From NCBI GenBank assembly GCA_041398705.1, contig JAWKUI010000009.1, positions 111,372 to 175,371 of the forward strand: DNA of 64,000 bases. Reading direction: 5' to 3'. Positions 5,942-42,313 of the stretch are shown here, in pieces. A program made the translations under genes and the position numbers. The number at the start of each line of letters is the position of its first letter. The stretch's first letter is position 1. The notes under the pieces were generated by a model. That model was not told where the DNA came from, did not search any database, and saw nothing but the letters and a program-made list of their open reading frames with translations. The DNA comes from Planctomycetota bacterium. Its GTDB lineage: Bacteria; Planctomycetota; UBA1135; GCA-002686595.

Positions 5942-6012
5942 AAGACTCACGCGGCGCAAGACCCGCCCAAACGAAGCCCGACCTCGGGGCCGGATTCCAT
6001 TCCGTAGCGATC

Positions 6013-6495
6013 TTAGTGCTCCGACACTTCGATGTCCCCCAACCGGTAGATCCAATCGACATGATCCCCGGGCAATAGCCCTCCCCACAGGAGCTTGAGC
6101 GCTTTCGAAGAGTGAACCGGCGGGCCCGAGATCCCCAGCCCGCCCCCACCGGGCACCCCGAGGCGGAGTTGCAGAGAAAGTTGCCCCTCCAGGTCTCCGC
6201 GTCCGATGCGAAGCCGGAATGGGGTGACGGTTTGATTGCTGATCAGAATGCAGGTCCCGGCGAGCAGGATTTGGTTGCCGCCGTGCTGGCCTGCGTGGGC
6301 CAGTTGAAAGCCGTCGATGCTCTCACGCTTCCATTCGGGGTACCCCTTGGCCAGGGCGGCGGGAAGCCAAGTCTCCAGGACTTCCAACAGATGGGCCATC
6401 GGTTCGCTGGCCGTGGGCTCCCCTACCGAAATGCCCAGGAGTACCCGCTCGAGGAGTTCTGCGATCGTGTTCTCAGGCGAGTTCGGCATCAACAT
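6013..6495 (-). CDS. hypothetical protein
   Basis: ORF on the same strand, downstream of the TlpA-like gene. Start set at the internal Met (MLMPNSPEN...) because the ORF N-terminus looks like non-coding read-through. No motif recognised. Confidence 0.35.
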   Translation of the reverse strand: MLMPNSPENTIAELLERVLLGISVGEPTASEPMAHLLEVLETWLPAALAKGYPEWKRESIDGFQLAHAGQHGGNQILLAGTCILISNQTVTPFRLRIGRGDLEGQLSLQLRLGVPGGGGLGISGPPVHSSKALKLLWGGLLPGDHVDWIYRLGDIEVSEH

Positions 6496-7801: not shown

Positions 7802-7947
7802 GGCGTCGTTGGTTTCGTTTGCGGCAGGGGCCGCGGACCCTCCCAGTATCGCACGCGGGTGGAAATGCACCAGGAGTGGCTCTGTAAGGACTTACGCAGG
7901 GAGCTCCCGGGCGGTCCGCGGCCCCGGCCCTGGTACCCTGGGCCGCC

Positions 7948-9492
7948 ATGGCCCTGATCCACTTCCTAGAACACACCGCCGCCGGCCGCCCGGGCCAGAC
8001 CGCGTACCTGCGCCGCGGGATGCCGGTGACCTACGCCGAGCTGCGGGCCGATGTGGCCCGCTTGGCCGGCACGTGGGCCGCAGCAGGCGTGATGGCGGGC
8101 GACCGGGTGGCGGTGCTCGCCGGCAACAGCCCGCGCTTCCTCGAAGCCTACTTCGCCGCCGCCGAGCTGCGCGCCGTGCTCGTCCCCCTCGGCACGCGCC
8201 TCGCGCCGCCCGAGCTCGCCGCGATCCTCGAACTCGCCCAGGCCCGCGTGCTCTGCATCGACCCCGGGCACACCGAACTCGCGCGCCGAATCGCAAGGGC
8301 CCCGCACCTGGGCCTGGCCCATTGGGCCGATGTCGAACAACCCGGTTTGACCTGGCTCGAAGCCCCCACCGCCCCCTGGCCCGGCGGCTTCCCCGCCCCC
8401 TCGGACCTCGCGCACCTCTACTTCACGAGCGGCACCACCGGCCGGCCGAAGGGTGTGATGCTCACGCACAAGAACGTCGCCGAACACGCGCGCCAGGCCA
8501 TCGCCGAATTGGGCCTGCGCCCCGCGGACGGCTGGGGCCACTTCGCCCCGATGTTCCACCTCGCCGACGCATGGGCCACCTTCGCGGCCACCGCCGCCGG
8601 CGCACGCCACCACTTCCTCGAACGGTTCGAAGCCGACGCGGCCCTGCAGCAACTCCAGGACGAAGCGATCACCCTCAGCAACCTCGTGCCGACGATGCTG
8701 CAGCGCATGCTCGCCCTGCCGCGGCCCGCGGGCGAATGGAACCGCCTGCGCCTCGTGCTCTCCGGTGGGGCCCCGATCGCGCCGTCCCTGGTGCAACGCA
8801 TCATGGACTTCTTCGGCTGCGAGTACGCGCAGACCTACGGGTTGACCGAAACGAGCCCGTACCTGACCTTCAGCCTGCCGCGCCCCGGCGAGCGGCACCC
8901 GGAGGGGCCCGCGGGCATCGCGCGCCGGGCGCGCACGGGCCGTGCCTTCGGCCGCGTGGGCTTGCGCGTCGTCGACGAAGCCGGCAACGACGTGCCCCAG
9001 GACGACCGGGCCGTCGGAGAGATCTGGGCCAGCGGCCCCACGGTCACGCCCGGCTACTGGCGCGACGCCGACGCCACCGCCGCCGCGTTTGCCGGCGAGT
9101 GGTTCCGGACCGGGGACCTGGCCACGTGGGATGCAACCGGCAGCGTCAACATCGTCGACCGCAAGAAGGACATGATCCTGACCGGCGGCGAGAACGTGTA
9201 TTCGATCGAAGTTGAAGCCGCGCTGCTCGCTTATCCCGGGGTGCTCGAGGCCGCGGCCTTCGGCGTTCCCGACGCGGATTGGGGCGAAGCCGTCTGGGCC
9301 GCCGTGGTCTGGGCGCCGGGCGCCACGGCCGACCTCGAGCGCTTGCAGCAGCACCTGCACGCCCAATTGGCGGGGTACAAATGTCCCAAACGCATCCTGG
9401 AATGCCCCGAGCTGCCAAAAACGAGTTCCGGAAAGATCCAAAAGCGCTTGCTGCGTGAATCGCTGCGCCCGGGAGGTACCCTGGCCCCATGA
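7948..9492 (+). CDS. AMP-dependent acyl-CoA synthetase/ligase
   Basis: AMP-binding signature 'YFTSGTTGRPKGVMLTHKN', plus 'YGLTETSP', 'WFRTGDLA' and 'DRKKDMILTGGENVYSIEVE', with the C-terminal 'LPKTSSGKIQKR' lysine motif. Confidence 0.85.
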   Translation: MALIHFLEHTAAGRPGQTAYLRRGMPVTYAELRADVARLAGTWAAAGVMAGDRVAVLAGNSPRFLEAYFAAAELRAVLVPLGTRLAPPELAAILELAQARVLCIDPGHTELARRIARAPHLGLAHWADVEQPGLTWLEAPTAPWPGGFPAPSDLAHLYFTSGTTGRPKGVMLTHKNVAEHARQAIAELGLRPADGWGHFAPMFHLADAWATFAATAAGARHHFLERFEADAALQQLQDEAITLSNLVPTMLQRMLALPRPAGEWNRLRLVLSGGAPIAPSLVQRIMDFFGCEYAQTYGLTETSPYLTFSLPRPGERHPEGPAGIARRARTGRAFGRVGLRVVDEAGNDVPQDDRAVGEIWASGPTVTPGYWRDADATAAAFAGEWFRTGDLATWDATGSVNIVDRKKDMILTGGENVYSIEVEAALLAYPGVLEAAAFGVPDADWGEAVWAAVVWAPGATADLERLQQHLHAQLAGYKCPKRILECPELPKTSSGKIQKRLLRESLRPGGTLAP

Positions 9493-11030
9493 AAGCGCCC
9501 GCCTGGGTCCTGCTATTGATCGTCGTCCTGCTGGCCGGTTTCCAGCGGGCCAGTGTCTTCTCGGCTCCACGCCGGGATCTGTTCGGCAGCTACGAAGCGG
9601 CGCAGCCCGTAGACTCCCCTTTGGTCGCCGGGGAAGAACGCCAGCGCATGAACGCCGCCAACGATCTTTGGTACGGCACGAGCATGCCTTGGATCGACTA
9701 CCAATACGCCAATTACACCGGCGGTTCCCTGGTGGTTTCGACCCTGATGGCGCCGCTGCTGCCCCTTTTCGGCTCCACCGCCTGGACCTTGCGCATCTTC
9801 GCGCTGGCGCTGCAGCTCCTGTCGGTGGTGCTGATCTTCGCGATCCTCGATCGTTGGGCTTCGCGCCGCGCCGCGGTCTTCGGCGGCCTGCTCTACGCCC
9901 TCACCACCCCCGGGTTCCTGATCAACAGCATGATGGTCTGGGGCACGCACGTGGAGAGCAACGTACTGGCGCTCCTCTGCCTCTGGTTGTACTTGAAGTT
10001 GCAGGCGGGAGAACGCCCCCAGGTCGCCCGCCGCATCCTGCTCGGCATCGGCCTCGGACTCAACGTCTACATCGGCTACCAGTCGATCCTGTTCGTGGGG
10101 ATGTTCGCCTTCTTCGACCTGTTCCCCCGTTGGCGCCCCCGCCTCCTGGAGTTCGCAGGTCAAGTCGCGGGCTTCGTGATCGGCATGATCCCGTGGCTCT
10201 GGTACAACCTGCGCAATGATTTCTCGGGCCTCGAGATCTACGGCCAGCGGCCGGAGGATTGGGTGGCCGGCGAGGGGCCGGTAGGCAAACTCTGGGGCTA
10301 TTTTGCGCGGGATTGGCCCGCAGCCCAATGGTTCGACTGGGCTTGGCCCGAATGGGGTCCCACGTACAACCGGCTGTACGCCGGGGTGCTGGTCCTGGCC
10401 GCCTTGATCGGCGCCACGCGCTTCTGCCGCGGCCGGGAAGGGGTGCCGCACCCCGCCCACCTCGCCGCGGTCCTGCTCGGTGGATTCCTCCTGGCGTGGG
10501 CCGTCACCGGATTCGGTGTGGAGGCCAAGGACGCCGTCTTCGGTTACCGCTATGTGCTGCTGGCCATGCCGTGGGTGGTGCTCGCCGCCGCCGCGGGCCT
10601 GGACCGCTTGGCCGGAAACCAGCCCGGTACCGCCGCCCTGGCCTGGTTCGCAACCACGGCGTTGGCCGGGCTCTGCCTTTATGCCAGCACCACCACGCTG
10701 ATCGACAAGGAACGCTTCGCAGCCGAGCGCAATGTTTCGGTGCTTGACCCGAGTGGACATGTGCTTTGGATGTATTCGAGCTATCGGCGGGTGCCCGAAC
10801 GCGCGGGTCCCCTCACGCGGCGCCTGCGGGCCAACCAGGATCCGGCGGAGTTCGAAACCCTGATGCGCGGTCTCGGCCAGAAGTTGCTTTGGCTGGGCAG
10901 CGAGCAACCCGGTTTCGCTCCCGAGCAACTCGAGTTCGCCGCCCAGTTGCGCGCCCTGCGCCGGGAGATCCTCGGCGCCTTGCCCGTCGAGATGCACGAC
11001 TGGTTCCCCGAACCCACCACGGGATCCTGA
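9489..11030 (+). CDS. polytopic membrane protein, ArnT/PMT (GT39/GT83)-like glycosyltransferase (putative)
   Basis: ATGA start/stop overlap with the upstream ligase. At least 10 hydrophobic helices with a large first loop, an architecture like lipid-linked sugar transferases. No catalytic motif verified. Confidence 0.5.
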   Translation: MKAPAWVLLLIVVLLAGFQRASVFSAPRRDLFGSYEAAQPVDSPLVAGEERQRMNAANDLWYGTSMPWIDYQYANYTGGSLVVSTLMAPLLPLFGSTAWTLRIFALALQLLSVVLIFAILDRWASRRAAVFGGLLYALTTPGFLINSMMVWGTHVESNVLALLCLWLYLKLQAGERPQVARRILLGIGLGLNVYIGYQSILFVGMFAFFDLFPRWRPRLLEFAGQVAGFVIGMIPWLWYNLRNDFSGLEIYGQRPEDWVAGEGPVGKLWGYFARDWPAAQWFDWAWPEWGPTYNRLYAGVLVLAALIGATRFCRGREGVPHPAHLAAVLLGGFLLAWAVTGFGVEAKDAVFGYRYVLLAMPWVVLAAAAGLDRLAGNQPGTAALAWFATTALAGLCLYASTTTLIDKERFAAERNVSVLDPSGHVLWMYSSYRRVPERAGPLTRRLRANQDPAEFETLMRGLGQKLLWLGSEQPGFAPEQLEFAAQLRALRREILGALPVEMHDWFPEPTTGS

Positions 11031-11040
11031 GCGCGCCCCC

Positions 11041-11649
11041 ATGTCGCTCTACGAACACCAGGTGCTGCCGCGCCTCCTGTCCTGGGGCATGGGTCTGCGC
11101 TACTTCGAAACGCACCGGGCCGCGACGCTGGAAGGCCTCTCCGGCACCGTACTCGAAGTCGGCTTCGGCGCGGGCCACAACCTGCCCCACTACCCCGCCG
11201 CCGTGCGCGAAGTGCTCGCCATCGAACCGAGCGACCTGGCGCGCCGCAAAGCCGCCGCCCGCATCCACGCCGCGCCCTTCCCCGTGCACTTCGCCGGCCT
11301 CGACGGCCAACGCATCGAACTTGACGACCAAAGCGTCGACGGCATCGCTTGCACCTGGACCCTGTGTTCGATTCCCGACGTGCACGCCGCCCTCGAGGAA
11401 ATGCGCCGCGTACTCAAACCCGGCGCCCGCCTGCACTTCTTCGAACACGGTCTCTCGCTTGATGCCAAAGTCGCCGCCAGCCAACACCGCTGGACCCCCG
11501 TGCAAAAACGCCTCTTCGGCGGCTGCCACCTCGACCGCGACATCGCGGGGCTCCTTAGCGCGCACTTCCCCCACCTCGCCGCCACCCCCAAAACCCTGCG
11601 CGGCCCGCGCATCTTGACCACCTGCCTGCACGGGCAGGCGTGGGGTTGA
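11041..11649 (+). CDS. class I SAM-dependent methyltransferase
   Basis: Motif I 'VLEVGFGAGHN', then 'VDGIACTWTLCSIPD' and 'EMRRVLKPGARLHFFEHG' (Methyltransf_11-like). Confidence 0.8.
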   Translation: MSLYEHQVLPRLLSWGMGLRYFETHRAATLEGLSGTVLEVGFGAGHNLPHYPAAVREVLAIEPSDLARRKAAARIHAAPFPVHFAGLDGQRIELDDQSVDGIACTWTLCSIPDVHAALEEMRRVLKPGARLHFFEHGLSLDAKVAASQHRWTPVQKRLFGGCHLDRDIAGLLSAHFPHLAATPKTLRGPRILTTCLHGQAWG

Positions 11650-11721
11650 AGCGCGGCGGGCGCGGCTCGGTTACCCTGGCACCCAAGAGCCCTATAGACG
11701 CCTGCTGCCTCCAACATTGCC

Positions 11722-12921
11722 ATGCTCCCCTGTCGCGTTATCGCCGCCATTTTTTTTCTGCTCGCGCCGCTCACCTCTGCCAAGGGGCCTGTGCAGCGGC
11801 CCGCCAGCCCACCTCAGCAGCCCGCTGCCGGCGCGGGTCTTGCGCAGGTGATGGACGAGACCGCGCCGCAGGTTCGGGTGCAAGTCCTTGCCGCGCCAGG
11901 CACAGGCCCCCAGAGGGTGCAGGACGCATTGCGAGAGGGTTTGTTTCTGTACCGGGAGCGGCCTGAACCCATCACGCTCCACCCCACGCAAATCCTGCCT
12001 GCGGGGGTTGCCCAGTTCACCGGCGTCGAACCCGGAACCTGGCGCCTGGTCGCCTGGCACGCGGACCTTCCCCCGGACAATCGTCTCCTCCAGATTGCAC
12101 GGGATTCTGAGTCGCAGGAGATTCGATTGGCATGGCGCGGCGCGGATTCGCGGGGGCAAGGAAAGTTGCGCGCCTACTTGGGCGATTTGGAGCCACTTTT
12201 CTTGGTACGGTCCGGTGCGCACCTATACCTACAGCCTGGAAATGTGCCGCTTCCGGTGCCTAGGCATGTCCTCGCATTCTTGGGAGCTCGGCCTCGGCCA
12301 GGCAGCATGGATTCGCAGGGCGAGTCCATCGGATCGCACATGGAAGACCCTGGGTCTGACCGACTGCCGGCCGGCAGCTACTCCTTGGAGATCTACCGCT
12401 ATGCTCCAACCTGCCCGCAACCCTTGGATGATCTGGAGTGCAACGCAATGATCCGTGCGCGCTTCGAGATTCGACCCGGGGAGGAAACCGCGGTCCAAAT
12501 GGAACGCTTGGGCTATGGTCAACTGCGACTGACCCTGGTCGGCGCGCTCACCGAGCAGGATCGCGCGCTGCTGGAACTGTGTTCTCCAGCCGACTGGTTC
12601 CAGCGACTCCGGGAGGAGCACGACCTCCTTCGCCGCGGTCTCCGATCCACCCCACCCTGGCCCGTGCGCCCAGGACCCAAGGATGGCGTCGCGATTGCGG
12701 ATCTCCTCGTGGATGGATTTCCCGAGACGCCCGTCTTGTGGGGCGACAACTCATCTGAGTGGTGTTCGTTTGGCGCGTTTCCACTGGGCCGAACGACCCT
12801 CACGGGCTTTCTGCCCGCAGGCCCCGCCGCCCTGCGCATCACCCTGCCCGGAGGCCGGGTTTTCGAACAATCGGTGACCGTACGCACATACGAAGCGACG
12901 GACGTCATGATCGTCTGGTAG
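11722..12921 (+). CDS. hypothetical secreted protein, paralog of 20581..21795
   Basis: Signal peptide MLPCRVIAAIFFLLAPLTSAKG. Shares 'LPAGSYSLEIYRYAPTC' and a C-terminal '...VTVRTYEATDVMIVW' with 'LPPGRYLLESRRYAPSILC' and '...VEVRSGQVTPVEVRW' of the other protein. Confidence 0.55.
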   Translation: MLPCRVIAAIFFLLAPLTSAKGPVQRPASPPQQPAAGAGLAQVMDETAPQVRVQVLAAPGTGPQRVQDALREGLFLYRERPEPITLHPTQILPAGVAQFTGVEPGTWRLVAWHADLPPDNRLLQIARDSESQEIRLAWRGADSRGQGKLRAYLGDLEPLFLVRSGAHLYLQPGNVPLPVPRHVLAFLGARPRPGSMDSQGESIGSHMEDPGSDRLPAGSYSLEIYRYAPTCPQPLDDLECNAMIRARFEIRPGEETAVQMERLGYGQLRLTLVGALTEQDRALLELCSPADWFQRLREEHDLLRRGLRSTPPWPVRPGPKDGVAIADLLVDGFPETPVLWGDNSSEWCSFGAFPLGRTTLTGFLPAGPAALRITLPGGRVFEQSVTVRTYEATDVMIVW

Positions 12922-12943
12922 GCTGCGGGACAACTCCCCCGCC

Positions 12944-13714
12944 ATGCTCACTCCCGACTCGATCCGCGCGCGCCTCGAAGCAGAGGCGCAGGCGCAAGGC
13001 CTAGAAATCTTGCACGCCTGCGAAAGCGGTTCCCGGGCATGGGGCCTGGCATCCACGGACAGCGACTACGATGTGCGGTTCGTGTATCGCCGCCCGTTGG
13101 GGCGCTATCTGGAAATGCAACGGCCTGTAGACGTCATCGGGCCGGTGTTGGAAGGCGAACTCGACTTCGCCGGTTGGGATCTGCCCAAGTTTGCGGCCCA
13201 CCTCGTCCGCAGCAACCCGAGCGTGCTGGAATGGCTCGGGTCTCCGCAATTCTACCTGCATGACAAGGGCTTCCTCGACCAGGCGCGCGATTTGGCGAAT
13301 CGGTACTTTGACGTGCGGCGCGCCGTGCACCACTACGTTGGAATCGGCCAGAGCGCGTGGGATGGCGGCCGCCAGGCCGACGGCACTTGGAACCTGAAGA
13401 AGTTCTTCTACTTCGCCCGCCCGACCTTGGCAGCGGATTTCATCGTGCGCCACGGCGCGATGGCCCCGGTTCCGTTCGATGAGCTGTACGCCCATTGCGG
13501 CGACGCTGGCCTGTCGGCAGAACTCGAAGACCTCGTGCGCCACAAAGCTGGCGTATCCGAGGGCACGGACTTTCCGGTCCCCGGCCCGCTGGAAACGGAG
13601 CTCGTCCGGCGCCGGACGGACGCTGCGCGCGCAGCGGACGCATTCCCCATGCTCGCCCCCGATCCCGAAGCCGCGAATCGGTTCCTGCTCGAACAATTCG
13701 GAGTGCCCCTGTGA
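12944..13714 (+). CDS. Pol-beta-superfamily nucleotidyltransferase, RlaP/PF10127-like
   Basis: 'ESGSRAWGLASTDSDYDVRFVY' carries the GS-x-G...DxD Pol-beta NTase motif, followed by 'GWDLPKFAAHLVRSNPSVLEWL' typical of this family. Confidence 0.7.
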   Translation: MLTPDSIRARLEAEAQAQGLEILHACESGSRAWGLASTDSDYDVRFVYRRPLGRYLEMQRPVDVIGPVLEGELDFAGWDLPKFAAHLVRSNPSVLEWLGSPQFYLHDKGFLDQARDLANRYFDVRRAVHHYVGIGQSAWDGGRQADGTWNLKKFFYFARPTLAADFIVRHGAMAPVPFDELYAHCGDAGLSAELEDLVRHKAGVSEGTDFPVPGPLETELVRRRTDAARAADAFPMLAPDPEAANRFLLEQFGVPL

Positions 13715-14784
13715 AGTTGGAAGACGTGGAAGCGGGCAAGGGCCTTCTGTTGCGCTGCCGCGCGGGCAGCCACGCCTACGGACTTGCGACGGCGGAATCC
13801 GATGAGGATTTCCGCGGCGTGTTCCTGCAGCCGCAGGAAACGCTCTACGGCCTGTTGCCCTGCAAGCAAATCAGCGATGCGCGCCACGACCGCACCTATT
13901 GGGAGCTCGGCCGATTCGTGGAGTTACTCCTGCAGAGCAATCCCGGTGCGCTCGAGCTGCTTGCGAGCCCGCCGGATGCCGTGCTTTTTCGCCATCCGGT
14001 CATGGAACCGCTCAGGACCCAGGACTTTTTGAGCAAAGCGAGCATTCCAGCCTTTACAGGCTACGCGGAAGGCCAAATCCGGCGCGCACGGGGGCTGAAC
14101 AAGAAGGTGCACAACCCCATGCCGCGCGAGCGCAAGTCCGTGCAGGACTTCTGCCATGTGATCGAAGGCGGGCGTAGCCAACGCTGGGAGCATTGGCTCG
14201 CTCGGTCGGGACATGCGGCGAATTGCTTGGGCCTTGCGCCCATCGCCAAGGCAGCCGACTTGTACGGACTGTATCTGGACGCGGAAGGCACCTGGGCCCG
14301 CGGCATCTCTTCGGGTCCGGAGGCCAATGAGGTGCAGCTCAGCGAGGTGCCGCCTGGCCTTGCCCCCATCGCTTACCTGCACTTCGGGCGCCAAGGGTAC
14401 TCGGACTTCTGCAAGCGTCACCGTGAGTATTGGGTCTGGGTCAACGAGCGCAACGAGGCGCGCTACCAGAACACCGTGGCCCATGCGCAGGGCTACGACG
14501 CGAAGAACATGATGCACACCCTGCGGCTCCTCGATACCGCCCTGGGCATCATCCAAGACGGCACGGTGGTGGTGCGTCGCCCCGACAGGGAGTTCCTGCT
14601 GGCGGTCAAAGCCGGCCACTACTCCCTGGCCGAGGTGCTGGACATGGCGGAGGAACGCTTGGCCCGCATCGCCGCGGCTTTGCCCCACTGCAACCTGCCC
14701 GATCGCCCCGACGCCCAGCGCGCCGAAGCCACCCTGGTGCGCATGCGGCAGGAGCTGTATGGCGCGGAACTAGATCGCCCCTGA
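13711..14784 (+). CDS. Pol-beta-superfamily nucleotidyltransferase, RlaP/PF10127-like (second, longer paralog)
   Basis: GTG 13711 overlaps the upstream stop (GTGA). 'RAGSHAYGLATAESDEDFRGVF' and 'WELGRFVELLLQSNPGALELL' are present. The upstream part of ORF 13495.. is Arg-rich read-through and was discarded. Confidence 0.65.
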   Translation: MKLEDVEAGKGLLLRCRAGSHAYGLATAESDEDFRGVFLQPQETLYGLLPCKQISDARHDRTYWELGRFVELLLQSNPGALELLASPPDAVLFRHPVMEPLRTQDFLSKASIPAFTGYAEGQIRRARGLNKKVHNPMPRERKSVQDFCHVIEGGRSQRWEHWLARSGHAANCLGLAPIAKAADLYGLYLDAEGTWARGISSGPEANEVQLSEVPPGLAPIAYLHFGRQGYSDFCKRHREYWVWVNERNEARYQNTVAHAQGYDAKNMMHTLRLLDTALGIIQDGTVVVRRPDREFLLAVKAGHYSLAEVLDMAEERLARIAAALPHCNLPDRPDAQRAEATLVRMRQELYGAELDRP

Positions 14785-15921
14785 GCGCAGCAGTCCCGCG
14801 GCTTCGGCGAGGACGCGGACTTTGGCGGAGGCGCGTTCGGCGGAGTTCATCGGGCGTTCGGCGAAGGTGCCGAAGCCGCAGTCGGGGTTCAGGAAGATGC
14901 GTTCGTGGCCGAGGGCTTGGGCGAGGGCGCGCACGCGGGTGGCGATGGTGCGGGGGTTTTCGAGTTCGTCGGTGCGCGGGTTGACGACGCCGAAGCCGAC
15001 GCTGGAGCCGGGGGGCAGGGCGGTGAGCAAGGCGGGATCGCCGGCGCGCGGGGTGGCGTATTCGAGCACAAACTGGTCCAGGTGCATGCGGCCCAGGTGC
15101 GGCAGCAGGGCGTCGTAGCTGCCTTGCAGCAGCACAGACTCGTCGCGGCTCCAGTTGCCGCGGCAGACGTGCACGCCGCGGATCGGGCCAGTGAGGCCGT
15201 CGACGACACGGTTCATCAGCTCGACGGCTAGGTCGAGTTCGGATTCGGGGTTCGCGTTCGCGGCGAGGGCGGCGCACATGAAGGTGTGCGTGTTTGATTT
15301 TCCAGCGAAGGCGAGCTCGGTGAGCACGGGCTCGTCGAACTGCACCATGTCCACGCCTGCTTCGATCAGCGAGCGCAGTTCGTCGCGCAGGATCGTTACC
15401 ACGTCATCGCAGAGCTCCTGCCGGTCGCGGAAAGCGGGGCGCGAAAGGGCTTCGACCCAGGAGGAGCGCACCAGGATGTAGGGGCCGGGCAGGGTGGCTT
15501 TGATCGGCAGGTCGGTGATGCCCCGCAGGAACTCCATGTCGTCGCGCACGAGCGGGCGGATCGCCTTCAACCGCCCCACCGCCACGTTGTTGCGGATGGC
15601 GTAGGCGGGCACGTCGAGAGTGCGCAGCAGGGTCTCGAACGCCGCCTTGTCCTCGACGTGGTCGAGCAAATCGGCCATCGACATGCGGTCGAAGCCCTGC
15701 ACGCGCTCGGACAGGAACGACGTGAAGTTGTCGCGACGCTGTTCGCCATCGGTGATCAGGTCCGCGCCGGCTTCCTCCTGGGCGCGCACGGCGGCGACGA
15801 CCGCTTCGTCGGCGAGGGCGCCGGCGTCCGCGGAACGGCGCTTCATGGCGGTCAGCAGGGCGGCGGGCCGCGGCCAGCTGCCGACGGTGGTCACGGGAAA
15901 GGCGGGCAGGGGGCGGGGCAT
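14770..15921 (-). CDS. cobalamin-independent methionine-synthase-family (MetE C-terminal / Meth_synt_2) Zn thiol methyltransferase
   Basis: 'FPVTTVGSWPRP', 'DLITDGEQRRDNF', 'MVQFDEPVL', and Zn-ligand contexts 'GVHVCRGNW' and 'FLNPDCGFG'. ATG 15921 overlaps the upstream stop (ATGA). The 226-aa N-terminal extension of the ORF was discarded. Confidence 0.8.
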   Translation of the reverse strand: MPRPLPAFPVTTVGSWPRPAALLTAMKRRSADAGALADEAVVAAVRAQEEAGADLITDGEQRRDNFTSFLSERVQGFDRMSMADLLDHVEDKAAFETLLRTLDVPAYAIRNNVAVGRLKAIRPLVRDDMEFLRGITDLPIKATLPGPYILVRSSWVEALSRPAFRDRQELCDDVVTILRDELRSLIEAGVDMVQFDEPVLTELAFAGKSNTHTFMCAALAANANPESELDLAVELMNRVVDGLTGPIRGVHVCRGNWSRDESVLLQGSYDALLPHLGRMHLDQFVLEYATPRAGDPALLTALPPGSSVGFGVVNPRTDELENPRTIATRVRALAQALGHERIFLNPDCGFGTFAERPMNSAERASAKVRVLAEAAGLLRSGAI

Positions 15922-16661
15922 CAGGAACTCCGGCGTACGATGGTCACGGGGATGGGGTGGCTGAGGGAGGCCAGGATCGGCGAGCGGGCTTGGACTTCGC
16001 GCCAAAGTTCGGCGAGCGTTTCCTCGTCGGTGTCGGCATCGATGAACAGGCGGCCATCGATGGCGGCGAGGCCCGCGTCCCCTTCGGGCGCGGTGCCGAG
16101 GAACACGAACGGATCGCGCAGATTGCCGCTGAGGGTCACTTCGAGGGCGAAGATCTCGATGCCGCGTTGGCTCGCGCGCCAGCGCATGCCCTGGGCGAGG
16201 CACCCGCCGAGGGCAGCCAGCAGGTATTCGAGGGCGCCGGGCGCGACTTCTTCGGTGTCGAAACTGGCGGGTTGGCCGATGTCGAACGAATGGTTGCGGG
16301 CGTAGGCGCGTACGGCCGGCTGGCCTTCGATCGCACGCACGCGCACGCGCCAGGCGTGGGCGCGGGCTTTCTCTTGATCCGCCGCCAGGTCTTCGTCGGT
16401 GTGCCCGCGTTTGATCAGGAAGTGGCTCGTGCTGCGGCCTTGACCGGGCCGCGAGCCCAAGAAGGAATGCCCCACCAGGCGGCACCAAGCGGGCAGATCG
16501 ACGGTGACGCTGGCATCGTTGCTGCGCACCTCCATCGACCCACCTGCGGGCAGGTGGGACATGGCTTCGCGGATGATGAGCAGCAGGCCGCTGCCACAAT
16601 CCAAGTCCCCCCCTTCGCAGATCGCGTCTGCGCTGAGGGGGACCGACTCTTCACCCGTCAT
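15921..16661 (-). CDS. fusion protein: N-terminal TusA/SirA-like domain plus C-terminal OsmC/Ohr-like domain
   Basis: N-terminus 'GGDLDCGSGLLLIIREAMSHLPAGGSMEVRSNDASVTVDLPAWCRLVGH' has a TusA-like layout. C-terminus 'APGALEYLLAALGGCLAQGM...LEVTLSG' is OsmC-like. Confidence 0.6.
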   Translation of the reverse strand: MTGEESVPLSADAICEGGDLDCGSGLLLIIREAMSHLPAGGSMEVRSNDASVTVDLPAWCRLVGHSFLGSRPGQGRSTSHFLIKRGHTDEDLAADQEKARAHAWRVRVRAIEGQPAVRAYARNHSFDIGQPASFDTEEVAPGALEYLLAALGGCLAQGMRWRASQRGIEIFALEVTLSGNLRDPFVFLGTAPEGDAGLAAIDGRLFIDADTDEETLAELWREVQARSPILASLSHPIPVTIVRRSS

Positions 16662-16668
16662 GGAGCGA

Positions 16669-17031
16669 TCAGTAGGAGACGCAGGGAGCGCCCACGGAGA
16701 GGAACTCCACCAGGCTCGCGCCGCCGACGATGGTGGCGCCGGGGATCAACTTGCTTTCGTCAAGGCCGCGCTTTTTGAAGCAGGGCGAGCAGACCCAGAT
16801 GATGCCGCCGGCTTGGGCGAACTTGGAGATCAGTTCCCCGAGCGGGGCAAACCCTTCTTCGTGCACCCCGTCGGCGTACCCCTGCTGGCAAAGGTGCACG
16901 GCCTCGGTGGACAGGAACATGACGGTCTCCTTCTCGGAGGCCACCGCAGCGTTGGCCACGACGAAGGCGACGGTGGCCTTGTCGGTGTCGTTTTTGGCGG
17001 AGGTCAGACTGACGCAGAATCGGTTGTTCAT
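16669..17031 (-). CDS. DsrE/DsrF-like sulfur-relay family protein
   Basis: About 120 aa, 'MNNRFCVSLTSAKNDTDKATVAFVVANAAVA..ETVMFLSTEAVHL...IIWVCSPCFKKRGL...GATIVGGASLVEFL', matching the DsrE-like fold pattern. Start at ATG 17031. Confidence 0.6.
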   Translation of the reverse strand: MNNRFCVSLTSAKNDTDKATVAFVVANAAVASEKETVMFLSTEAVHLCQQGYADGVHEEGFAPLGELISKFAQAGGIIWVCSPCFKKRGLDESKLIPGATIVGGASLVEFLSVGAPCVSY

Positions 17032-17091
17032 GGGAGGAGCTTTGGGGGGGTCTGGGGAGGGGGAACGCCGCACGCTGGCGGTCGGTGGAGG

Positions 17092-17673
17092 TCAGGACTG
17101 CGGTTTGCGCGCAATCCAGTAGAGGGGGTGTTCGTGGAAGACGAGCGCATTGCCGGTGACGCGGCACCAGGCGGGCAGGTCCCCCGGGGCGCCGGGATCG
17201 GTGGCGCGCACCTGCAGCACGCCGCCGGGTTCGAGCTGGGCGAGGCGCGTGCGCAGTTCGAGCACCAGGTCGCCGCAGCCCATGTCACCGGCATCCCAGG
17301 TGTCCTGGACATTCGGGGCGGCGGACGCGGCGGCCGTCGGGGCCGCCGCCACGGAAATCGGCGCCGTGGGCAGGTAGGGCGGCCGGGATTCGCCAGCTTC
17401 CGCCAGGCGTTGTTCGGAGTGGCGCCAGCCGGCTTTGTAGCAGTCGAGGCGCGCGATGTGCGCGAGGGCGCGGTGCACGAGGGCGCCGGGGGCTTCGCCT
17501 TGGGCCTGGGCCAGGCAAGGGATGCAGGCCGGCGCGTTCTTGTAGCCGAGCAACAGACTCAACACGGCGTCCTGACCGATCAAGGCCTGACCGCAGCGGC
17601 ACGGCTGGCCCCACTGGTCCTCGGCCCAGGCGATCACATCTTCGGCGCGCAAGCTGCTCTTCGCGGGATTCAT
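17092..17673 (-). CDS. two-domain protein: Cys-rich N-terminal domain of unknown function plus C-terminal TusA/SirA-like domain
   Basis: C-terminus 'WDAGDMGCGDLVLELRTRLAQLEPGGVLQVRATDPGAPGDLPAWCRVTGN' parallels the TusA-like domain of 15921..16661. The N-terminus carries CRCG, CIPC and one further Cys. Confidence 0.55.
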   Translation of the reverse strand: MNPAKSSLRAEDVIAWAEDQWGQPCRCGQALIGQDAVLSLLLGYKNAPACIPCLAQAQGEAPGALVHRALAHIARLDCYKAGWRHSEQRLAEAGESRPPYLPTAPISVAAAPTAAASAAPNVQDTWDAGDMGCGDLVLELRTRLAQLEPGGVLQVRATDPGAPGDLPAWCRVTGNALVFHEHPLYWIARKPQS

Positions 17674-17731
17674 CGGGTTCTGGCAGGCAAGGGCCGGTGG
17701 CCGGGCACAAACGGCCCGGCCACCCGCGTTC

Positions 17732-18964
17732 CTAGAAGTACATGGTCATCTGGGCGTAGATCACCTCGCGGTCGTCTTCGTCACGGCCATAACCGAGCCA
17801 GCCGTGCACGCCTTCCGCCAGGGGGTACCCCACCATCGCATCCAACTCGTTGTTCTTGTTGCCCGCGGCATCGAAGTTCAAGAACGCCAAGTTGATGTCC
17901 AGCTTCTCGTTCGGCTCGATGTGCATGCCGAACTGGTTGGTGGCCAGGTCGCTGCGCCAGGCGCCGCCGAACTGGTGCAACAGACCCGCGGTGTTGAAGT
18001 CGCCGGGGTTGATGTGCATGGCCCCATCGGACTCGGTGCGGGTCAGGTGGATGCCCTTGACGGCCCCCCACATCTCGCTCGTGTCCTTGGAAAGCACGAT
18101 GCGGTAGGCATCGCGGGTCTCGTCGGTGGCGTCCACGTCGCGGCGCGCGTACTCGAGGTTCCAGTCGAACATCGACGGGTGTTCCTTCTGGGCGCCGATC
18201 GAGCCGTGCAGGGTCACCCCCATCCACGAGTCGTCGCTGGTGGCATCCCCATCGCCGGTGCCGAACAGCACCCAGGGTTCGATCGCCTGCAGCTCGTCGC
18301 TGCCCAGCCCGATGCGGCCGGTGGCGCCGACGAAGCGGGTGCCATCGGCGGCCGAGGTGACCGTGCCGTTGTTGTCGAAGCCGAAGAGCTCGACCGCGTG
18401 CTGGTCGTAGTGCTTGGAGATCCAAAGGCCCGTGCCGGCGGCCGGATACTGCAGGAAGTCGCAGGAACCGTAGACCAGACCGGAAGCCAGGGTGAAGTAG
18501 CTGCGGCCGACGCGCACGGTGGTGCCTTCGCCCAGCAGGTCATCAAGCAGCAGGTAGGCCTGGCCGATGCCGTTGTAGTTCACGCCGGGAGCCGCGTCGG
18601 AATAACCTTCCGAACCAGCCCAGGTCTCCGAGAAGTTGAACTGCACGTAGGCGCGGGCCTTCTCGTTGAGCACGTAGTCCATGTTGACCCGCGTGCGGCT
18701 GCTGATCTGGTCCGAGTCCGCGTAGGGCGTGCCGCTCGGCGAGTCGGCCATGCGGGCACGGAACCGGATGTCACCGGTCAAGGTCAGTTCGTTCGATCGC
18801 AGGATCAGGTTTTCGCTGATGTTGCCGATCTCGCTGGGCGGCGGAGCCAGGCTGAAGCACTGGGGGCTGCCGTTGTCATAGCCGCACTGGGCCAGGGCAT
18901 GGCCGGCGGTGAGGGAGCTGGCTGCAAGGACAGCCAGCAGGGAGCGCTGAGGAGTCAGAGTCAT
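17732..18964 (-). CDS. outer-membrane beta-barrel porin (putative)
   Basis: Start at ATG 18964 with signal peptide MTLTPQRSLLAVLAASSLTAGHALAQ. Alternating beta-strand-like sequence and a C-terminal 'YAQMTMYF' ending in Phe. Confidence 0.6.
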   Translation of the reverse strand: MTLTPQRSLLAVLAASSLTAGHALAQCGYDNGSPQCFSLAPPPSEIGNISENLILRSNELTLTGDIRFRARMADSPSGTPYADSDQISSRTRVNMDYVLNEKARAYVQFNFSETWAGSEGYSDAAPGVNYNGIGQAYLLLDDLLGEGTTVRVGRSYFTLASGLVYGSCDFLQYPAAGTGLWISKHYDQHAVELFGFDNNGTVTSAADGTRFVGATGRIGLGSDELQAIEPWVLFGTGDGDATSDDSWMGVTLHGSIGAQKEHPSMFDWNLEYARRDVDATDETRDAYRIVLSKDTSEMWGAVKGIHLTRTESDGAMHINPGDFNTAGLLHQFGGAWRSDLATNQFGMHIEPNEKLDINLAFLNFDAAGNKNNELDAMVGYPLAEGVHGWLGYGRDEDDREVIYAQMTMYF

Positions 18965-19372
18965 TTGGGGGGTCCTAAGAGGGTTGCGGACCCACCCGAC
19001 TCGGCTCAGGCCGTGGGTGCTAGCGTTGGCAGGAACGGGATTCCGCGTGGCCCCTGGGGTCGGACCGGAATCCAAGGGGAGTACGACCGCACCCCCTGCG
19101 TCCCCCGGGCCAAGCCTCGGGTCCGCAGTTCGTGTCGTCACCCGAATGGGCGACATTCATACATGGGTCGTTCCACGCCCCCGGAGCCTAATGAGGGCCT
19201 GCGGAATCGCGCAAGGGGTTTTCTGGGAGGGGGTTGGGGCCCCGGGGGCCCCAATCGGACCGTTTACACCCGCTTTTCGCCGGGATCAGGACCTGATCGA
19301 TGCAAAACGCGGGCAAGTTCCGGGAACCGCAGCGCCCGATTCGGCCCCCAAGCGGCCATAGGTCACTGCCCC

Positions 19373-20371
19373 ATGAAACACCCCCACCTCCGTGCAACGG
19401 TCGCGCCCCTGATGGGCGCTTTGGTTCTGATCGGCTTCAGCGCTTGCAACAAGGACAAGGGCCAGGCGGTCCCCACGGCCGCAGGCCCGCCCGATCTGCG
19501 GGCCCCCTTCCAGTCCTGGCCGAACTCCCCCGCCGCGCCCGTGGCCTCCACCCCGGAGATCGTCGCGCTCGGCGAACGGCTGTACCACGAGACGGCCCTG
19601 TCCAAGGGCGGTGACGTGTCCTGCGCCACCTGCCACGCGCTCGACAACTTCGGCCAGGACGGCAAGAAGGTGAGCTCGGGCACTTCCGGCCTGCTCGGCA
19701 AACGCAATGCGCCGACTTCGATCAATGCCTTCCGCCAGTTCGCGCAGTTCTGGGATGGGCGCGCCGACAGCGTCGAGACCCAGTCCACCATGCCGATGCT
19801 GACCGATGTCGAGCACGGTCTGGTGAGCGAAGATCAGATCGTCGAGATTCTGCAGGGGGTCGGCGACTACCCGGCGGCGTTTGCGAAGGCATTCGGGGCG
19901 TCGGATCAACTTGCGCTGACTGCCGACAACGTGCGGGCGGCCATCGGTGCCTTCGAACGCACCCTCGTCACCCACTCCCCCTTCGACGCCTGGCTCGATG
20001 GCGACGACAACGCCCTTTCCGCCGAGCAGAAGAAGGGTCTTGAGACCTTCGTCGCCAGCGGCTGCACCATGTGCCACTCCGGCCGCGCGGTTGGGGGCGG
20101 TATGTTCCAGAAGCTCGGACTCGTCAAAGCCGTTGAGACCGAGGATCTGGGCCGATTCCAGGTCACGGGCAACGAAGCGGACAAGTACATGTTCAAGGTG
20201 CCGACCCTGCTGAACATCGAGAGGACCGGTCCGTACATGCACGACGGGCGTTTTGACTCCCTGGAGGAGGCCATTCGGTTCATGGGTGATGTGCAACTCG
20301 GCAAGGCGCTCAGCGATGAAGATGTGAAGTCCATCGCGGTGTTCCTTGGCGCGCTGACCGGCACCCGCTGA
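19373..20371 (+). CDS. di-haem cytochrome c peroxidase (CCP/MauG family) lipoprotein
   Basis: Two CXXCH motifs ('CATCHALDNFGQDG' and 'CTMCHSG'), plus 'RNAPTSINA', 'FWDGRA', 'FKVPTLLNIERTGPYMHDGRF'. Lipobox 'LIGFSAC'. ATG 19373 lies within the long spurious ORF 17804..20371. Confidence 0.85.
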   Translation: MKHPHLRATVAPLMGALVLIGFSACNKDKGQAVPTAAGPPDLRAPFQSWPNSPAAPVASTPEIVALGERLYHETALSKGGDVSCATCHALDNFGQDGKKVSSGTSGLLGKRNAPTSINAFRQFAQFWDGRADSVETQSTMPMLTDVEHGLVSEDQIVEILQGVGDYPAAFAKAFGASDQLALTADNVRAAIGAFERTLVTHSPFDAWLDGDDNALSAEQKKGLETFVASGCTMCHSGRAVGGGMFQKLGLVKAVETEDLGRFQVTGNEADKYMFKVPTLLNIERTGPYMHDGRFDSLEEAIRFMGDVQLGKALSDEDVKSIAVFLGALTGTR

Positions 20372-20373
20372 TG

Positions 20374-20498
20374 CCGTTGGAATAACGTTACATACCGAAC
20401 CAGGTTCGATCAGTCCCACAATTCGCGGGGCGTGCTGCGCACGCCCGCGATTGTGGGACTGATCGAACCTGGTTCGGTATGTAACGTTATTCCAACGG
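20374..20498. repeat. 125-bp near-perfect palindromic element, copy 1
   Basis: ccgttggaataacgttacataccgaaccaggttcgatcagtcccacaattcgcggggcgtgc / tgc / gcacgcccgcgattgtgggactgatcgaacctggttcggtatgtaacgttattccaacgg. This gives a stem of about 60 bp with two single-nt bulges. It starts 2 nt after the ccp stop codon. Confidence 0.9.
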
Positions 20499-20580
20499 CG
20501 CCATGGCCTCCAATCATTGAACCAGCGACAACTTCGAACGTTCCACCGGGAGCATCCCCTAGGCCTCCGCTGATTCGCAC

Positions 20581-21795
20581 ATGCACCGCAAGAAACGAGT
20601 TCCAACCAAGCCCAGGAGCCCCATCCCCTTGGGTGCAAGGCCCTTGGCAATCCACCTTAGCCTGGCCGCATTCCTGCTTTCCCCGGTACGCGCCTGGCAA
20701 GACCCGGAACCCAAAGAGCTGTGCCGAGAATTCCACGTCGAGCTGCTGGCGGAAAACGGAAGGCCTCTTTTTCCGACAAGCAACGCTCGGAATGTGCCAA
20801 AGTTCATCCGGGAGGGATTCACAAAGCTGCCTCCCCCCTACGTCCGGCTCTTCGAGGAATTGCATCCGGACGCTGAGGCCAAAGTCGCCTGGCACGACTC
20901 CGGCACGTACATCCTGCGGGTTCAGGGCAGTGGCCGCCGTTGGATCTCCGTGCTCGCCCCCGGGTTTGATCCGGCGCCTTTTGCCGTGGACATTCCCGAG
21001 CAAGGGCCGATACCTTGCATCGAACTCAAACAGCGGCCCCATTTGCGCACGGTACCGGTCCATTTGGACGTGTGGGTGCACGCCACGCAGGCAGATCTGG
21101 AAGCCGATCATCCTCAGGACGCCCCGTCGCAAAGCTCAAGGACACGCCCAGGCAACCGCTGGAGCGTGTACTTTCAAGAAGCGACGAGCGGCCTCCCGAT
21201 GGGAGAGATCCGGGTGCCGGTGCCCGGAACCACCGTTGACCTACCACCGGGTCGATACCTCCTCGAGTCCCGTCGTTATGCTCCATCAATTCTGTGCGGG
21301 CAGAGCAATCTTCCCCATGGGCATGGGCCATGGCTTCCCGGAATCCAGGAGTTCGAAGTCCTTCCGGGTACTCCGATCACCCTGTACCTGTACGCTGTGC
21401 GCGGCGGGCAGATTCGGCTTCGACTTGAAGGAGACCTGGGGGCCCCAGCCGATGGCCCGGCCATCCCTACCGAGGATTTCGTCCGGTTCGGCTCCAGTTG
21501 CGAAACAAGGGTCGATGCCTCCACTCACGCACGAGTCGAACTGATTGGCGACCCCTTCGGGCCGATTTACCCCGTTTGGTGCGTACAAGGCGAGGATGAC
21601 CGCTCGACGGCATCCCTGGACTATGGAGACAGAGGAATCCGGCGCCTTTGGCCTTTGAACGACGCTGCGCTGCTCAGCCACCACGTGCGGCCCGGGTTCT
21701 ACACGTTGAAGGTGACGTTGGCTTCAGGGTTCACGAAGGCGGTGCCGGTGGAGGTGAGGAGTGGGCAGGTCACTCCGGTCGAGGTCCGGTGGTAG
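20581..21795 (+). CDS. hypothetical secreted protein, paralog of 11722..12921, bracketed by the palindromic elements
   Basis: ATG 20581 with a basic N-terminus and hydrophobic segment (LAIHLSLAAFLLSPVRAWQ). Paralogy motifs as noted for 11722..12921. Chosen over the overlapping ORF 20432..21544. Confidence 0.55.
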   Translation: MHRKKRVPTKPRSPIPLGARPLAIHLSLAAFLLSPVRAWQDPEPKELCREFHVELLAENGRPLFPTSNARNVPKFIREGFTKLPPPYVRLFEELHPDAEAKVAWHDSGTYILRVQGSGRRWISVLAPGFDPAPFAVDIPEQGPIPCIELKQRPHLRTVPVHLDVWVHATQADLEADHPQDAPSQSSRTRPGNRWSVYFQEATSGLPMGEIRVPVPGTTVDLPPGRYLLESRRYAPSILCGQSNLPHGHGPWLPGIQEFEVLPGTPITLYLYAVRGGQIRLRLEGDLGAPADGPAIPTEDFVRFGSSCETRVDASTHARVELIGDPFGPIYPVWCVQGEDDRSTASLDYGDRGIRRLWPLNDAALLSHHVRPGFYTLKVTLASGFTKAVPVEVRSGQVTPVEVRW

Positions 21796-21799
21796 TGGG

Positions 21800-21923
21800 C
21801 CGTTGGAATAACGTTACATACCGAACCAGGTTCGATCAGTCCCACAATTCGCGGGGCGTGCGCAGCGCGCCCCGCGGATGTGGGCTGATCGACCTGGTTC
21901 GGTATGTAACGTTATTCCAACGG
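21800..21923. repeat. 124-bp palindromic element, copy 2
   Basis: The first 62 nt are identical to copy 1. The right arm is diverged (gggctgatcgacctgg versus gggactgatcgaacctgg). It starts 4 nt after the stop of 20581..21795 and lies 27 nt beyond the glyQS stop on the other strand. Both copies are followed by NNccatggcc. Confidence 0.9.
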
Positions 21924-21950
21924 GGCCATGGCCGGCCATCCACAGCAGGG

Positions 21951-23303
21951 TTACTGCGGCCGCTTCCAGTTGCCCTTGGACTCGTTCAGGTAGGTCACGA
22001 GCTCCGCGACCGGCACCGTTTCCTGCTCCATCGAATCGCGGTGGCGCACGGTGACGATGTCCTTGGCCAGGGTTTCCCCGTCCACGGTAATGCAGAACGG
22101 CGTGCCGACTTCATCCTGGCGGCGATAGCGACGGCCAATGGCCGCCTTGTCGTCGTAGAAGGTGCTGAGGCGGGCCTTGCGCAGGGTGGCGGCGATTTCG
22201 CGGGCCTTTTCGGGCATGCCTTCCTTGTTGACGAGCGGGAAGACGCCGGCGGTGATCGGGGCGATCTCGGGGTGGAAGTGCAGCACCACGCGCGTGTCCT
22301 TCTCGAGCTGCTGCTCCTCGTACGCGTCGATCATGAAAGTCAGCGCCATGCGGTTGATGCCGCCGGCGGGTTCGATCACGTAGGGCGTGTACTTCTCCTT
22401 GGTCTGCGGATCGAAGTACACCAGGTTTTCACCGGTCGCTTCGCTGTGGCGCGACAAGTCGAAGTCCGTGCGGTTCGCGATGCCTTCGAGCTCGCCCCAG
22501 CCGAACGGGTAGAGGTATTCCACGTCGCTGGTCGCCTTGGCGTAGTGCGCCAGTTCCTTCGGATCGTGGGCGCGCAGGCGCAGCTTGTCGGGGTTGATGC
22601 CGTAGTCCTTGTACCACTGGAAGCGCGTTTGGCACCAGTGATCGAACCACTGCTCGTCCTCGGTCGGCGGCACGAAGAACTCCATCTCGGCCTGTTCGAA
22701 TTCGCGGGTGCGGAAGACGAAGTTGCCGGGGGTGATCTCGTTGCGGAAGGACTTGCCGATCTGCGCGATGCCGAAGGGCGGCTTGAGGCGCGCCGACTCC
22801 ATCACGTTCTTGAAGTTCAGGAAGATGCCCTGGGCGGTTTCCGGACGCAGGTAGGCGATCGAGGAGCTGCCCTCCATGGCCCCCACCTGGGTCTTGAACA
22901 TCAGGTTGAACTCGCGAGGTTCGGTCAGCTCGCCGTCGCACTGGCCCGGGCACTTGCTCGGCTTCATCGGGCAGCGCGCGTCTTCAAGCTTGTCCGCCCG
23001 GAAGCGCCCCTTGCAGGTCTTGCAGTCGACCATCGGGTCGGAGAAGCCGCCCACGTGGCCGGAGGTCTCCCAGACCTTGGGGTGCTGGATGATGGCGGAG
23101 TCCAGGCCCACCACATCGGCGCGCTCGGTGACCATCGCCCCCCACCAGGCCTCCTTGACCCGGCGCAGCAGCTCGACCCCAAGGGGGCCGTAGTCGTAGG
23201 TGTTGCCCATGCCCCCGTAGATCTCGGAGGCTTGGAAGATGAACCCCCGGCGTTTGCACAGGGAGACGATCGAGTCCATCAAGGAGGGCGGTTGTTTGGC
23301 CAT
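21951..23303 (-). CDS. glyQS: glycine--tRNA ligase (class II, alpha2 type)
   Basis: 'IVSLCKRRGFIFQASEIYGG..NTYDYGPLG', 'GKSFRNEITPGNFVFRTREFEQAEMEFF', 'IEPAGGINRM', and an anticodon-binding C-terminus 'RRYRRQDEVGTPFCITVD'. Confidence 0.92.
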   Translation of the reverse strand: MAKQPPSLMDSIVSLCKRRGFIFQASEIYGGMGNTYDYGPLGVELLRRVKEAWWGAMVTERADVVGLDSAIIQHPKVWETSGHVGGFSDPMVDCKTCKGRFRADKLEDARCPMKPSKCPGQCDGELTEPREFNLMFKTQVGAMEGSSSIAYLRPETAQGIFLNFKNVMESARLKPPFGIAQIGKSFRNEITPGNFVFRTREFEQAEMEFFVPPTEDEQWFDHWCQTRFQWYKDYGINPDKLRLRAHDPKELAHYAKATSDVEYLYPFGWGELEGIANRTDFDLSRHSEATGENLVYFDPQTKEKYTPYVIEPAGGINRMALTFMIDAYEEQQLEKDTRVVLHFHPEIAPITAGVFPLVNKEGMPEKAREIAATLRKARLSTFYDDKAAIGRRYRRQDEVGTPFCITVDGETLAKDIVTVRHRDSMEQETVPVAELVTYLNESKGNWKRPQ

Positions 23304-42090: not shown

Positions 42091-42313
42091 GCGGGCTTTC
42101 TGCCCTTGCGCACCCTGGGGCCGCATCCGCGGCCCCAGGGTGCGCGCATTTCCGGCGGGGTGATTGCCCTGGGCCTCCGGGGCTTTCTATCCTGCACCCA
42201 TCTGAGCGGCCCGGGGGGGACGCCTGGAGGGGACTTCGCGGGTTTTCAGGCCTGCTGGCTCCCATTTCCCCAGGCACTGCTCCCCGGGGCGAGTCCCCTA
42301 CCCGCGTTTTGCC

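Follow-up and report, generated by a model that had tools for sequence, protein, structure and literature searches.

Two near-perfect long palindromes bracket an orphan gene beside glyQS in an uncultured planctomycete

We analyzed 64 kb of chromosomal DNA (67% GC) from an uncultured Planctomycetota bacterium (GCA_041398705.1, contig JAWKUI010000009.1, positions 111,372 to 175,371; 'the window' hereafter means this whole stretch of 64,000 nucleotides) and describe two long palindromes that lie between ccp, a cytochrome c peroxidase gene, and the tRNA synthetase gene glyQS, on either side of a single open reading frame (ORF). The source organism is related to Rohdeia mirabilis, and the nearest genome in the collection shares 91% GlyQS identity with it. 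The 90% clusters of GlyQS, Ccp, the product of the bracketed ORF and a radical-SAM protein were all singletons, so that the collection holds no closer relative of the species. The features of the locus, in window coordinates, are as follows.

11041-21950: variable slot of about 11 kb, between a PMT_2-family gene (9489-11030) and glyQS
19373-20371, plus strand: ccp, encoding a di-haem cytochrome c peroxidase with a lipoprotein-type signal
20373-20499 (127 nt): palindrome copy 1; left arm 20373-20435, loop TGC 20436-20438, right arm 20439-20499
20500-20515, plus strand: non-palindromic 3' tail of copy 1, GCCATGGCC then TCCAATC, common to copy 2
20581-21795, plus strand: bracketed ORF of 404 amino acids with an N-terminal signal-peptide-like segment, the sole open frame of the segment
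21799-21924 (126 nt): palindrome copy 2; left arm 21799-21861, loop GCA 21862-21864, right arm 21865-21924
21925-21940, plus strand: 3' tail of copy 2, GCCATGGCC then GGCCATC, ending 10 nt before the glyQS stop codon
21951-23303, minus strand: glyQS, a core gene that is conserved and converges with the bracketed ORF, its 3' end towards copy 2

The first-pass annotation of this DNA had placed both palindromes right after stop codons, which held for each of them, at distances of 1 nt from the ccp stop (20369-20371) for copy 1 and 3-4 nt from the stop of the bracketed ORF (21793-21795) for copy 2. It had also described the pair as bracketing one gene, and 20581-21795 is indeed the only open frame between the copies. 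Copy 2 faces the 3' end of glyQS, as had been proposed, the hairpin being separated from the glyQS stop codon (21951-21953, minus strand) by 27 nt and GCCATGGCC ending 17 nt from that codon. The composition of ccp is native-looking (GC at third codon positions, GC3, 0.84). The sole frame open through copy 1 continues the ccp frame past the ccp stop codon.

The two elements match the near-perfect palindromes of about 125 bp originally reported, at 127 and 126 nt. In copy 1, perfect 50-nt arms form an unbroken 50-bp helix, followed by a bulged T and a bulged G 6 bp apart and by a GC-rich apex; RNA and DNA folding both reproduced the two single-nucleotide bulges and the 3-nt loop that had been described for it. 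In copy 2 the outer arms are perfect over 32 nt. The left arms of the two copies are identical, as had been stated, at 63/63 positions, and the outer right arms at 32/32. All eight departures from symmetry fall within right arms, two in copy 1 and six in copy 2, which by our calculation has a chance of about 0.4% if both arms are equally likely to change. Compared with a perfect complement, the right arm of copy 1 has two 1-nt deletions, which are its two bulges (positions 51 and 58), and that of copy 2 has three substitutions and three 1-nt deletions, clustered in its inner 31 nt. The drift reported for the right arm of copy 2 is thereby borne out, with the right arm of copy 1 altered as well. 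The two 3-nt loops, TGC in copy 1 and GCA in copy 2, are mutual reverse complements.

Each arm comprises three zones. The outer zone is AT-rich (GC 0.39 against 0.67 for the window, in agreement with the contrast noted earlier) and holds the dyad TAACGTTA, the middle zone holds the dyad CGAACCAGGTTCG, and the apex is GC-rich (GC 0.85). On its own, one arm does not fold better than shuffled sequence (z -0.1) and contains only small local dyads. The complete elements folded at -124.4 (copy 1) and -123.8 kcal/mol (copy 2) as RNA (z = -20 and -19, respectively), and at -79.8 and -71.3 kcal/mol as DNA. A sliding-window fold scan gave about -112 kcal/mol for the palindromes and about -86 kcal/mol for the best of the ordinary terminators in the window, which are GC stems of 15-20 bp with T-runs. 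The arm 23-mer GGAATAACGTTACATACCGAACC occurs exactly four times in the window, these being the four arms (0.00 occurrences expected in shuffles), and the 64 kb contain no further long palindromes.

Both palindromes are followed by S-GCCATGGCC, as the first-pass annotation had seen, and then by NNCCA(A)TC, with similarity extending to 20515 and 21940. The repeat unit thus comprises about 136-143 bp, a hairpin of 126-127 nt plus a short non-palindromic 3' tail, and because the same asymmetric tail follows both copies they are direct repeats. GCCATGGCC itself was rejected as an element-specific motif, as it has nine sites in the window and is a frequent Met-Ala start-codon context in the source genome; its equal offset after both copies nevertheless makes it part of the duplicated unit. 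On the minus strand (20491-20508 and 21915-21932), tail and outer arm together read ATG GCS CCG TTG GAA TAA, a five-codon mini-ORF (MAPLE) in which the sole nucleotide difference between the copies is synonymous; it is probably coincidental.

We then asked where else the element occurs. Copy counts cover the window and a 13.7-kb sister contig belonging to another assembly of this species (GCA_041398525.1, JAWKUL010000056.1; locus L081), and the comparison loci that we fetched total 1.42 Mb, of which 289 kb come from close relatives. The outer 20-mer had no match in species genomes, metagenome contigs or viral contigs, a looser two-arm pattern (13+13) had none in the metagenomes, and the middle 21-mer had none in the viral contigs. 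BLASTN searches retrieved nothing from plasmids and only chance matches of 29 nt from phages. A 41-residue peptide from the frame open through the palindrome, meant to catch copies that gene callers had translated, found no match in the protein database. A profile hidden Markov model (HMM) built from the four arms and run over the 1.42 Mb of fetched loci and the window recovered only these four arms and L081. No Rfam family reached its gathering threshold; the best, MIR831, scored 53.5 bits where its gathering threshold is 100, and the sub-threshold matches are generic long-hairpin models. The palindromes are real and belong to no described repeat family.

In L081, an independent assembly, both elements were seen again at the same two sites. 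This contig matches the window at 100% identity across glyQS and across 15750-18250, whereas over 18500-21950 and 13250-15750 it shows dense 1-2-nt deletions and mismatches, with about 120 gap openings in 11.6 kb and gene calls fragmented within the noisy patches, which look like locally unpolished long-read consensus. We rejected L081 as a second allele, since scattered 1-2-nt deletions between stretches of 100% identity are assembly noise, and the one garbled arm per element in this contig is for that reason not readable as evolution.

Comparison of orthologous loci, which the first-pass annotation had proposed, showed that the palindromes are absent from the relatives sampled and present only in L081, from the same species. 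All close relatives keep synteny on the radical-SAM side of glyQS, and on the opposite side DNA similarity goes no further than the glyQS stop codon. In the closest relative (L001), a convergent homologue of the PMT_2-family gene lies about 40 bp past glyQS (9872-9914), which identifies window positions 11041-21950 as a variable slot of about 11 kb, with both palindromes at its glyQS end. The slot holds a methyltransferase, an unknown ORF, RlaP, a MetE-like gene, DsrE, TusA, another unknown ORF, ccp and the orphan ORF in the window, and 3.7, 4 and 1.1 kb of unrelated genes in L002 (6107-9843), L003 (11350-15361) and L004 (3867-4974), respectively. Across this clade, the stretch from the PMT_2-family gene to glyQS is a hotspot of gene-content change, and what it contains differs in every relative.

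Several relatives carry a hairpin of their own at the glyQS boundary. In L002, a hairpin of about 100 nt with a stem of about 45 bp directly follows the glyQS stop (6109-6215), and long hairpins occupy the same position in L003 (11367-11475) and L005 (4097-4215). The latter two are homologous (87% over 67 nt), with at least one compensatory pair (GAGG/CCTC to GGGG/CCCC). L012 has a 20-bp hairpin after glyQS (11420-11465) and L004 a canonical terminator. None of these glyQS-proximal hairpins is related in sequence to the window palindromes. In L002 and L003 the glyQS-proximal hairpin is the sole exceptional hairpin of the slot, which rules out cassette arrays in the relatives, and such single hairpins support one ancestral glyQS-proximal hairpin. 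In none of the relatives does ccp adjoin glyQS, and the source genome of L002 has ccp at another locus (L082). No long hairpin follows the ccp homologues of the relatives (60-74% identity), which rules out a conserved ccp 3' structure.

The bracketed ORF is a compositionally atypical orphan. It belongs to no Pfam or NCBIfam family and has no homologue in 5.8 billion protein clusters, and an exhaustive HMMER search against 1.84 billion representatives returned only itself and two weak matches (E about 1e-5 over 57-78 residues) to Ig-like (immunoglobulin-like) or SprB repeats of large adhesins. Its GC by codon position (0.67/0.50/0.70) is coding-like, with a GC3 of 0.70; ccp stands at 0.84, and glyQS and the radical-SAM genes at 0.90-0.91. 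Modelling its structure from the single sequence gave no usable result (mean predicted local distance difference test score 36.7). The gene at 11722-12921, previously called its paralogue, turned out to share only a weak domain-level resemblance with it, 35% identity over 66 residues (E 6e-4). Three ORFs of low GC3 (0.70-0.73) in the window lack a clear family, namely 4592-6088 (minus strand), 11722-12921 and 20581-21795; two of them give faint carboxypeptidase-regulatory or Ig-like beta-sandwich signals, and all three may belong to a loosely defined group of secreted proteins that evolve fast in the source genome.

In order to place the element among known systems, we compared it with the palindromic repeats of other bacteria. 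Enterobacterial repetitive intergenic consensus (ERIC) sequences of about 127 bp, Correia elements and Rickettsia palindromic elements are bacterial miniature inverted-repeat transposable elements (MITEs) or long intergenic palindromes that occur in many copies and are shared among related species, and MITEs carry terminal inverted repeats (TIRs) matching those of a parent insertion sequence together with a target-site duplication. The window element resembles them in size class, in being an imperfect palindrome, in lying in an intergenic region that is plausibly transcribed and in being non-coding, and they are known to affect mRNA stability and processing. It has terminal inverted repeats of 50 nt (copy 1) and 32 nt (copy 2). 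Unlike them, it is absent from all relatives sampled, has no visible ends of a parent insertion sequence, and shows no 2-10-nt direct repeat at its boundaries for any boundary choice examined (copy 1 is flanked by GCTGAT / GCCATGG and copy 2 by GTAGTGG / GCCATGG). No presence/absence polymorphism separates the two assemblies of the species.

Repetitive extragenic palindrome (REP) dimers, or REPINs, are extragenic hairpins found mostly just downstream of coding regions (PMC3116915; PMC3733652), and REP families with their RAYT transposases as well as TIR-repeat families are documented in the planctomycete R. baltica. The element is like REPINs in that two inverted arms form an extragenic hairpin of about 100-125 nt, plausibly transcribed, mostly just past coding regions and in a phylum with such families, and in that a short tail left unpaired makes the unit slightly asymmetric. 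In contrast, a REPIN consists of two short REP hairpins with GTAG/CGTC tags and a less conserved spacer and occurs in tens to hundreds of copies, with a RAYT flanked by repeats, whereas the 50-bp arm here is perfectly paired, neither a GTAG nor a CGTC tag lies within the element, and two adjacent copies are known, with no RAYT or other Y1 transposase found in scans of the window that holds them. Of the roles suggested earlier, that of a MITE- or REP-like palindrome serving as a 3'-end structure remains the nearest description, although the tag, the target-site duplication and any further copy in the collections searched are missing; the element probably works like a REP/REPIN- or MITE-type intergenic palindrome while being a demonstrated member of neither. 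The suggested role as a bidirectional terminator does not hold in its canonical, Rho-independent form. A consensus scan found no terminator-like site at either element, and no T-run follows on either strand, so that these are not canonical intrinsic terminators; genuine terminators with T-runs are present in the window at 42108-42150 and 58927-58970.

Taking these results together, we tentatively favour the view that the two palindromes are copies of one lineage-restricted, non-coding repeat, located at the junctions of a 1.3-kb segment carrying the orphan gene and left there by its insertion. One long hairpin would first have sat between convergent ccp and glyQS, as the unrelated hairpins of the sister lineages do beside glyQS, and the orphan-gene segment would have entered by recombination at or beside it, leaving one hairpin copy on each side in the manner of attL and attR. 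The direct repeats could loop the orphan gene out again by homologous recombination. This view draws on the presence of only two copies in the 64 kb, adjacent to each other and bracketing exactly one ORF; on their arrangement as direct repeats that include the asymmetric tail; on the contrast between native-looking ccp and glyQS outside and a compositionally atypical orphan inside; on the gene-content hotspot and the single long hairpin at the glyQS boundary in sister genomes; on the ccp homologues elsewhere that lack such a hairpin; and on the palindromes being outliers relative to the ordinary terminators of the source genome. As in attL/attR pairs, repeats of about 140 bp bound a compositionally foreign insert beside a housekeeping gene in a variable slot, although the insert here is only 1.3 kb without an integrase and a giant palindrome is atypical of att sites. 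At the RNA level, the elements may act as stable 3'-end hairpins, copy 1 serving ccp, and copy 2 the bracketed ORF as well as glyQS, and would more probably be blocks to 3' exonucleases or targets of double-strand-specific RNases than terminators. Since the stems begin 1-4 nt past a stop codon, a terminating ribosome must open their AT-rich base.

Several observations weigh against insertion at an ancestral hairpin. The copies were counted in the window and the sister contig, with which a dispersed multi-copy family is still compatible. No empty-site allele was seen, both copies being in place in the sister assembly too, and no recombinase or insertion mechanism was identified in the window. 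A single duplication followed by simple divergence does not explain why all eight differences (8/8) lie in right arms, a clustering that may reflect gene conversion or input from a further family member that has diverged. As for RNA, the proposed role is one that we infer, and no U-tract is present.

The main rival is that of a dispersed palindrome of the MITE or REPIN type, moved in trans, for example by a tyrosine transposase of the RAYT/TIRYT type encoded elsewhere, and inserted twice independently into 3' intergenic space on either side of what happens to be one gene. We consider it somewhat less likely than the insertion reading. A hairpin of about 125 nt that is extragenic and just after stop codons has the architecture of a REPIN or REP dimer (PMC3116915; PMC3733652), the families of R. 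baltica show that such repeats exist in planctomycetes, and the outer arms are AT-rich relative to the host. The inner right-arm differences of copy 2 could stem from a diverged sister copy, and their clustering mildly favours further, diverged copies; by our Poisson estimate the finding of no further copies in about 62 kb still allows up to about 200 per genome of about 5 Mb. On the other hand, the only two copies in 64 kb lie 1.3 kb apart and have a common flank of 9-16 nt past the palindrome, with neither a target-site duplication nor a conserved 5' target motif; the tag is lacking and a single arm forms no REP-like hairpin; and neither a transposase in the window nor any related sequence in the 289 kb of close relatives or in the public collections scanned was found. 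It is much less probable that the inner arms are TIRs of about 61-63 nt belonging to a 1.4-kb unit (about 20439-21861) that went into the middle of an existing palindrome with this sequence or, equivalently, that the palindromes are fused hairpin-end junctions of a linear element. Only two indels separate right arm 1 from left arm 2, against six changes in the outer pair, the loops are reverse complements, and sequence alone does not separate the two parsings of a palindromic repeat; the non-palindromic tail on the same side of both copies, however, fits direct repeats of the whole unit better, the ORF is unlike a transposase or telomere resolvase and none is encoded nearby, the palindrome centre is not itself symmetric, and to hit a 3-nt loop exactly, the unit would need some means of targeting, of which there is no sign. 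A dif/XerCD-like or telomere-resolvase site was likewise set aside, the half-site spacing not being dif-like, the centre being asymmetric and no enzyme lying nearby. An assembly artefact, that is, a fold-back or chimeric consensus error, is the least probable of all: long palindromes are hard to assemble, and L081 has one garbled arm per element and noise over 18500-21950, but the same 63-nt arm occurs at two separate sites with partner arms bearing distinct private changes, both elements are at the same positions in the second assembly, and the flanking genes are intact and in frame.

The first-pass annotation had also raised the possibility of attC-like sites delimiting gene cassettes. Under this alternative, the palindromes would be integron attC sites in a cluster lacking its own integrase (CALIN), delimiting ccp and orphan-ORF cassettes, with folded single strands recombined by an IntI encoded elsewhere. 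Some of the original grounds were sound, as the length of 126-127 nt is within the 57-141 bp range of attC sites, an ORF is followed by a site twice on the same (plus) strand, and AAC/GTT triplets are present; in copy 1, moreover, the extrahelical T and G are separated by a 6-bp stem, which is the attC spacing (PMC5027507). In attC sites, an R box (5'-RYYYAAC-3' pairing with 5'-GTTRRRY-3') forms the hairpin base, an unpaired central spacer of 5-6 nt per arm separates the R and L boxes, extrahelical bases lie near L'' at about 16 and 23-24 from the base with 6-bp spacing, and function needs asymmetry between the top and bottom strands (PMC5027507). Here, as had been recognized, the RYYYAAC/GTTRRRY consensus is unmatched; the nearest approaches to it, GAATAAC and GTTATTC, each depart at two positions, and in the outermost pair, GTTGGAA...TTCCAAC, the 5'-3' order is wrong. 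There is no central spacer, the helix being unbroken from its base for 50 bp in copy 1 and 32 bp in copy 2. The bulges of copy 1 are on the 5' arm at 51 and 58 from the base instead of about 16 and 23, away from any L box, and are not kept in copy 2, where unpaired positions are at 34, 42 and 49-50. A near-perfect palindrome also leaves almost no strand asymmetry. Pfam scanning of the proteins of about 45 window ORFs detected no integrase (Phage_integrase type), no intI, as already noted, and no transposase or other recombinase, only housekeeping and metabolic genes, and a resident autonomous element is thus not evident. Finally, ccp is native in composition and not cassette-like in the relatives, which have one hairpin and not arrays. 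The element is not an integron attC site; the structural tests already largely refute such an assignment, to which we give only marginal probability. A broader idea, improbable in our view, is that giant hairpins are recombination sites of an undescribed, non-integron gene-capture mechanism of this planctomycete clade, in which single genes are inserted at the glyQS-proximal palindrome and duplicate it at both junctions. It would explain the unrelated hairpins at the glyQS boundary, the differing slot contents and the fact that the gene which looks newest is an orphan between two copies.

If the palindromes are junction copies, the locus is a small, clean case of an orphan gene entering a chromosome at a structured DNA site with no visible recombinase; if they are two of many dispersed copies, they represent a new palindromic repeat family in a phylum with barely described elements. 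Either way, a perfect helix of 50 bp only 1-4 nt past a stop codon is expected to have a strong effect on the 3' ends of three transcripts, among them that of an essential tRNA synthetase. For annotation, the element is not an integron and should not be labelled as one.

Two further observations concern other parts of the window. At 6710-7870 (minus strand), an AhpC/TSA (thioredoxin-like) domain is split over two adjacent ORFs, with profile positions 1-33 at the end of a TPR-containing ORF (7034-7870) and positions 45-121 in the ORF at 6710-7015, which points to a frameshift, an early stop codon or an error in the sequence around 7015-7034. Side by side at 42314-45279 lie the genes for subunits B and A of topoisomerase VI (Topo-VIb_trans/HATPase and TP6A_N/Toprim, respectively), an archaeal/eukaryotic-type type IIB topoisomerase that is uncommon in bacteria.

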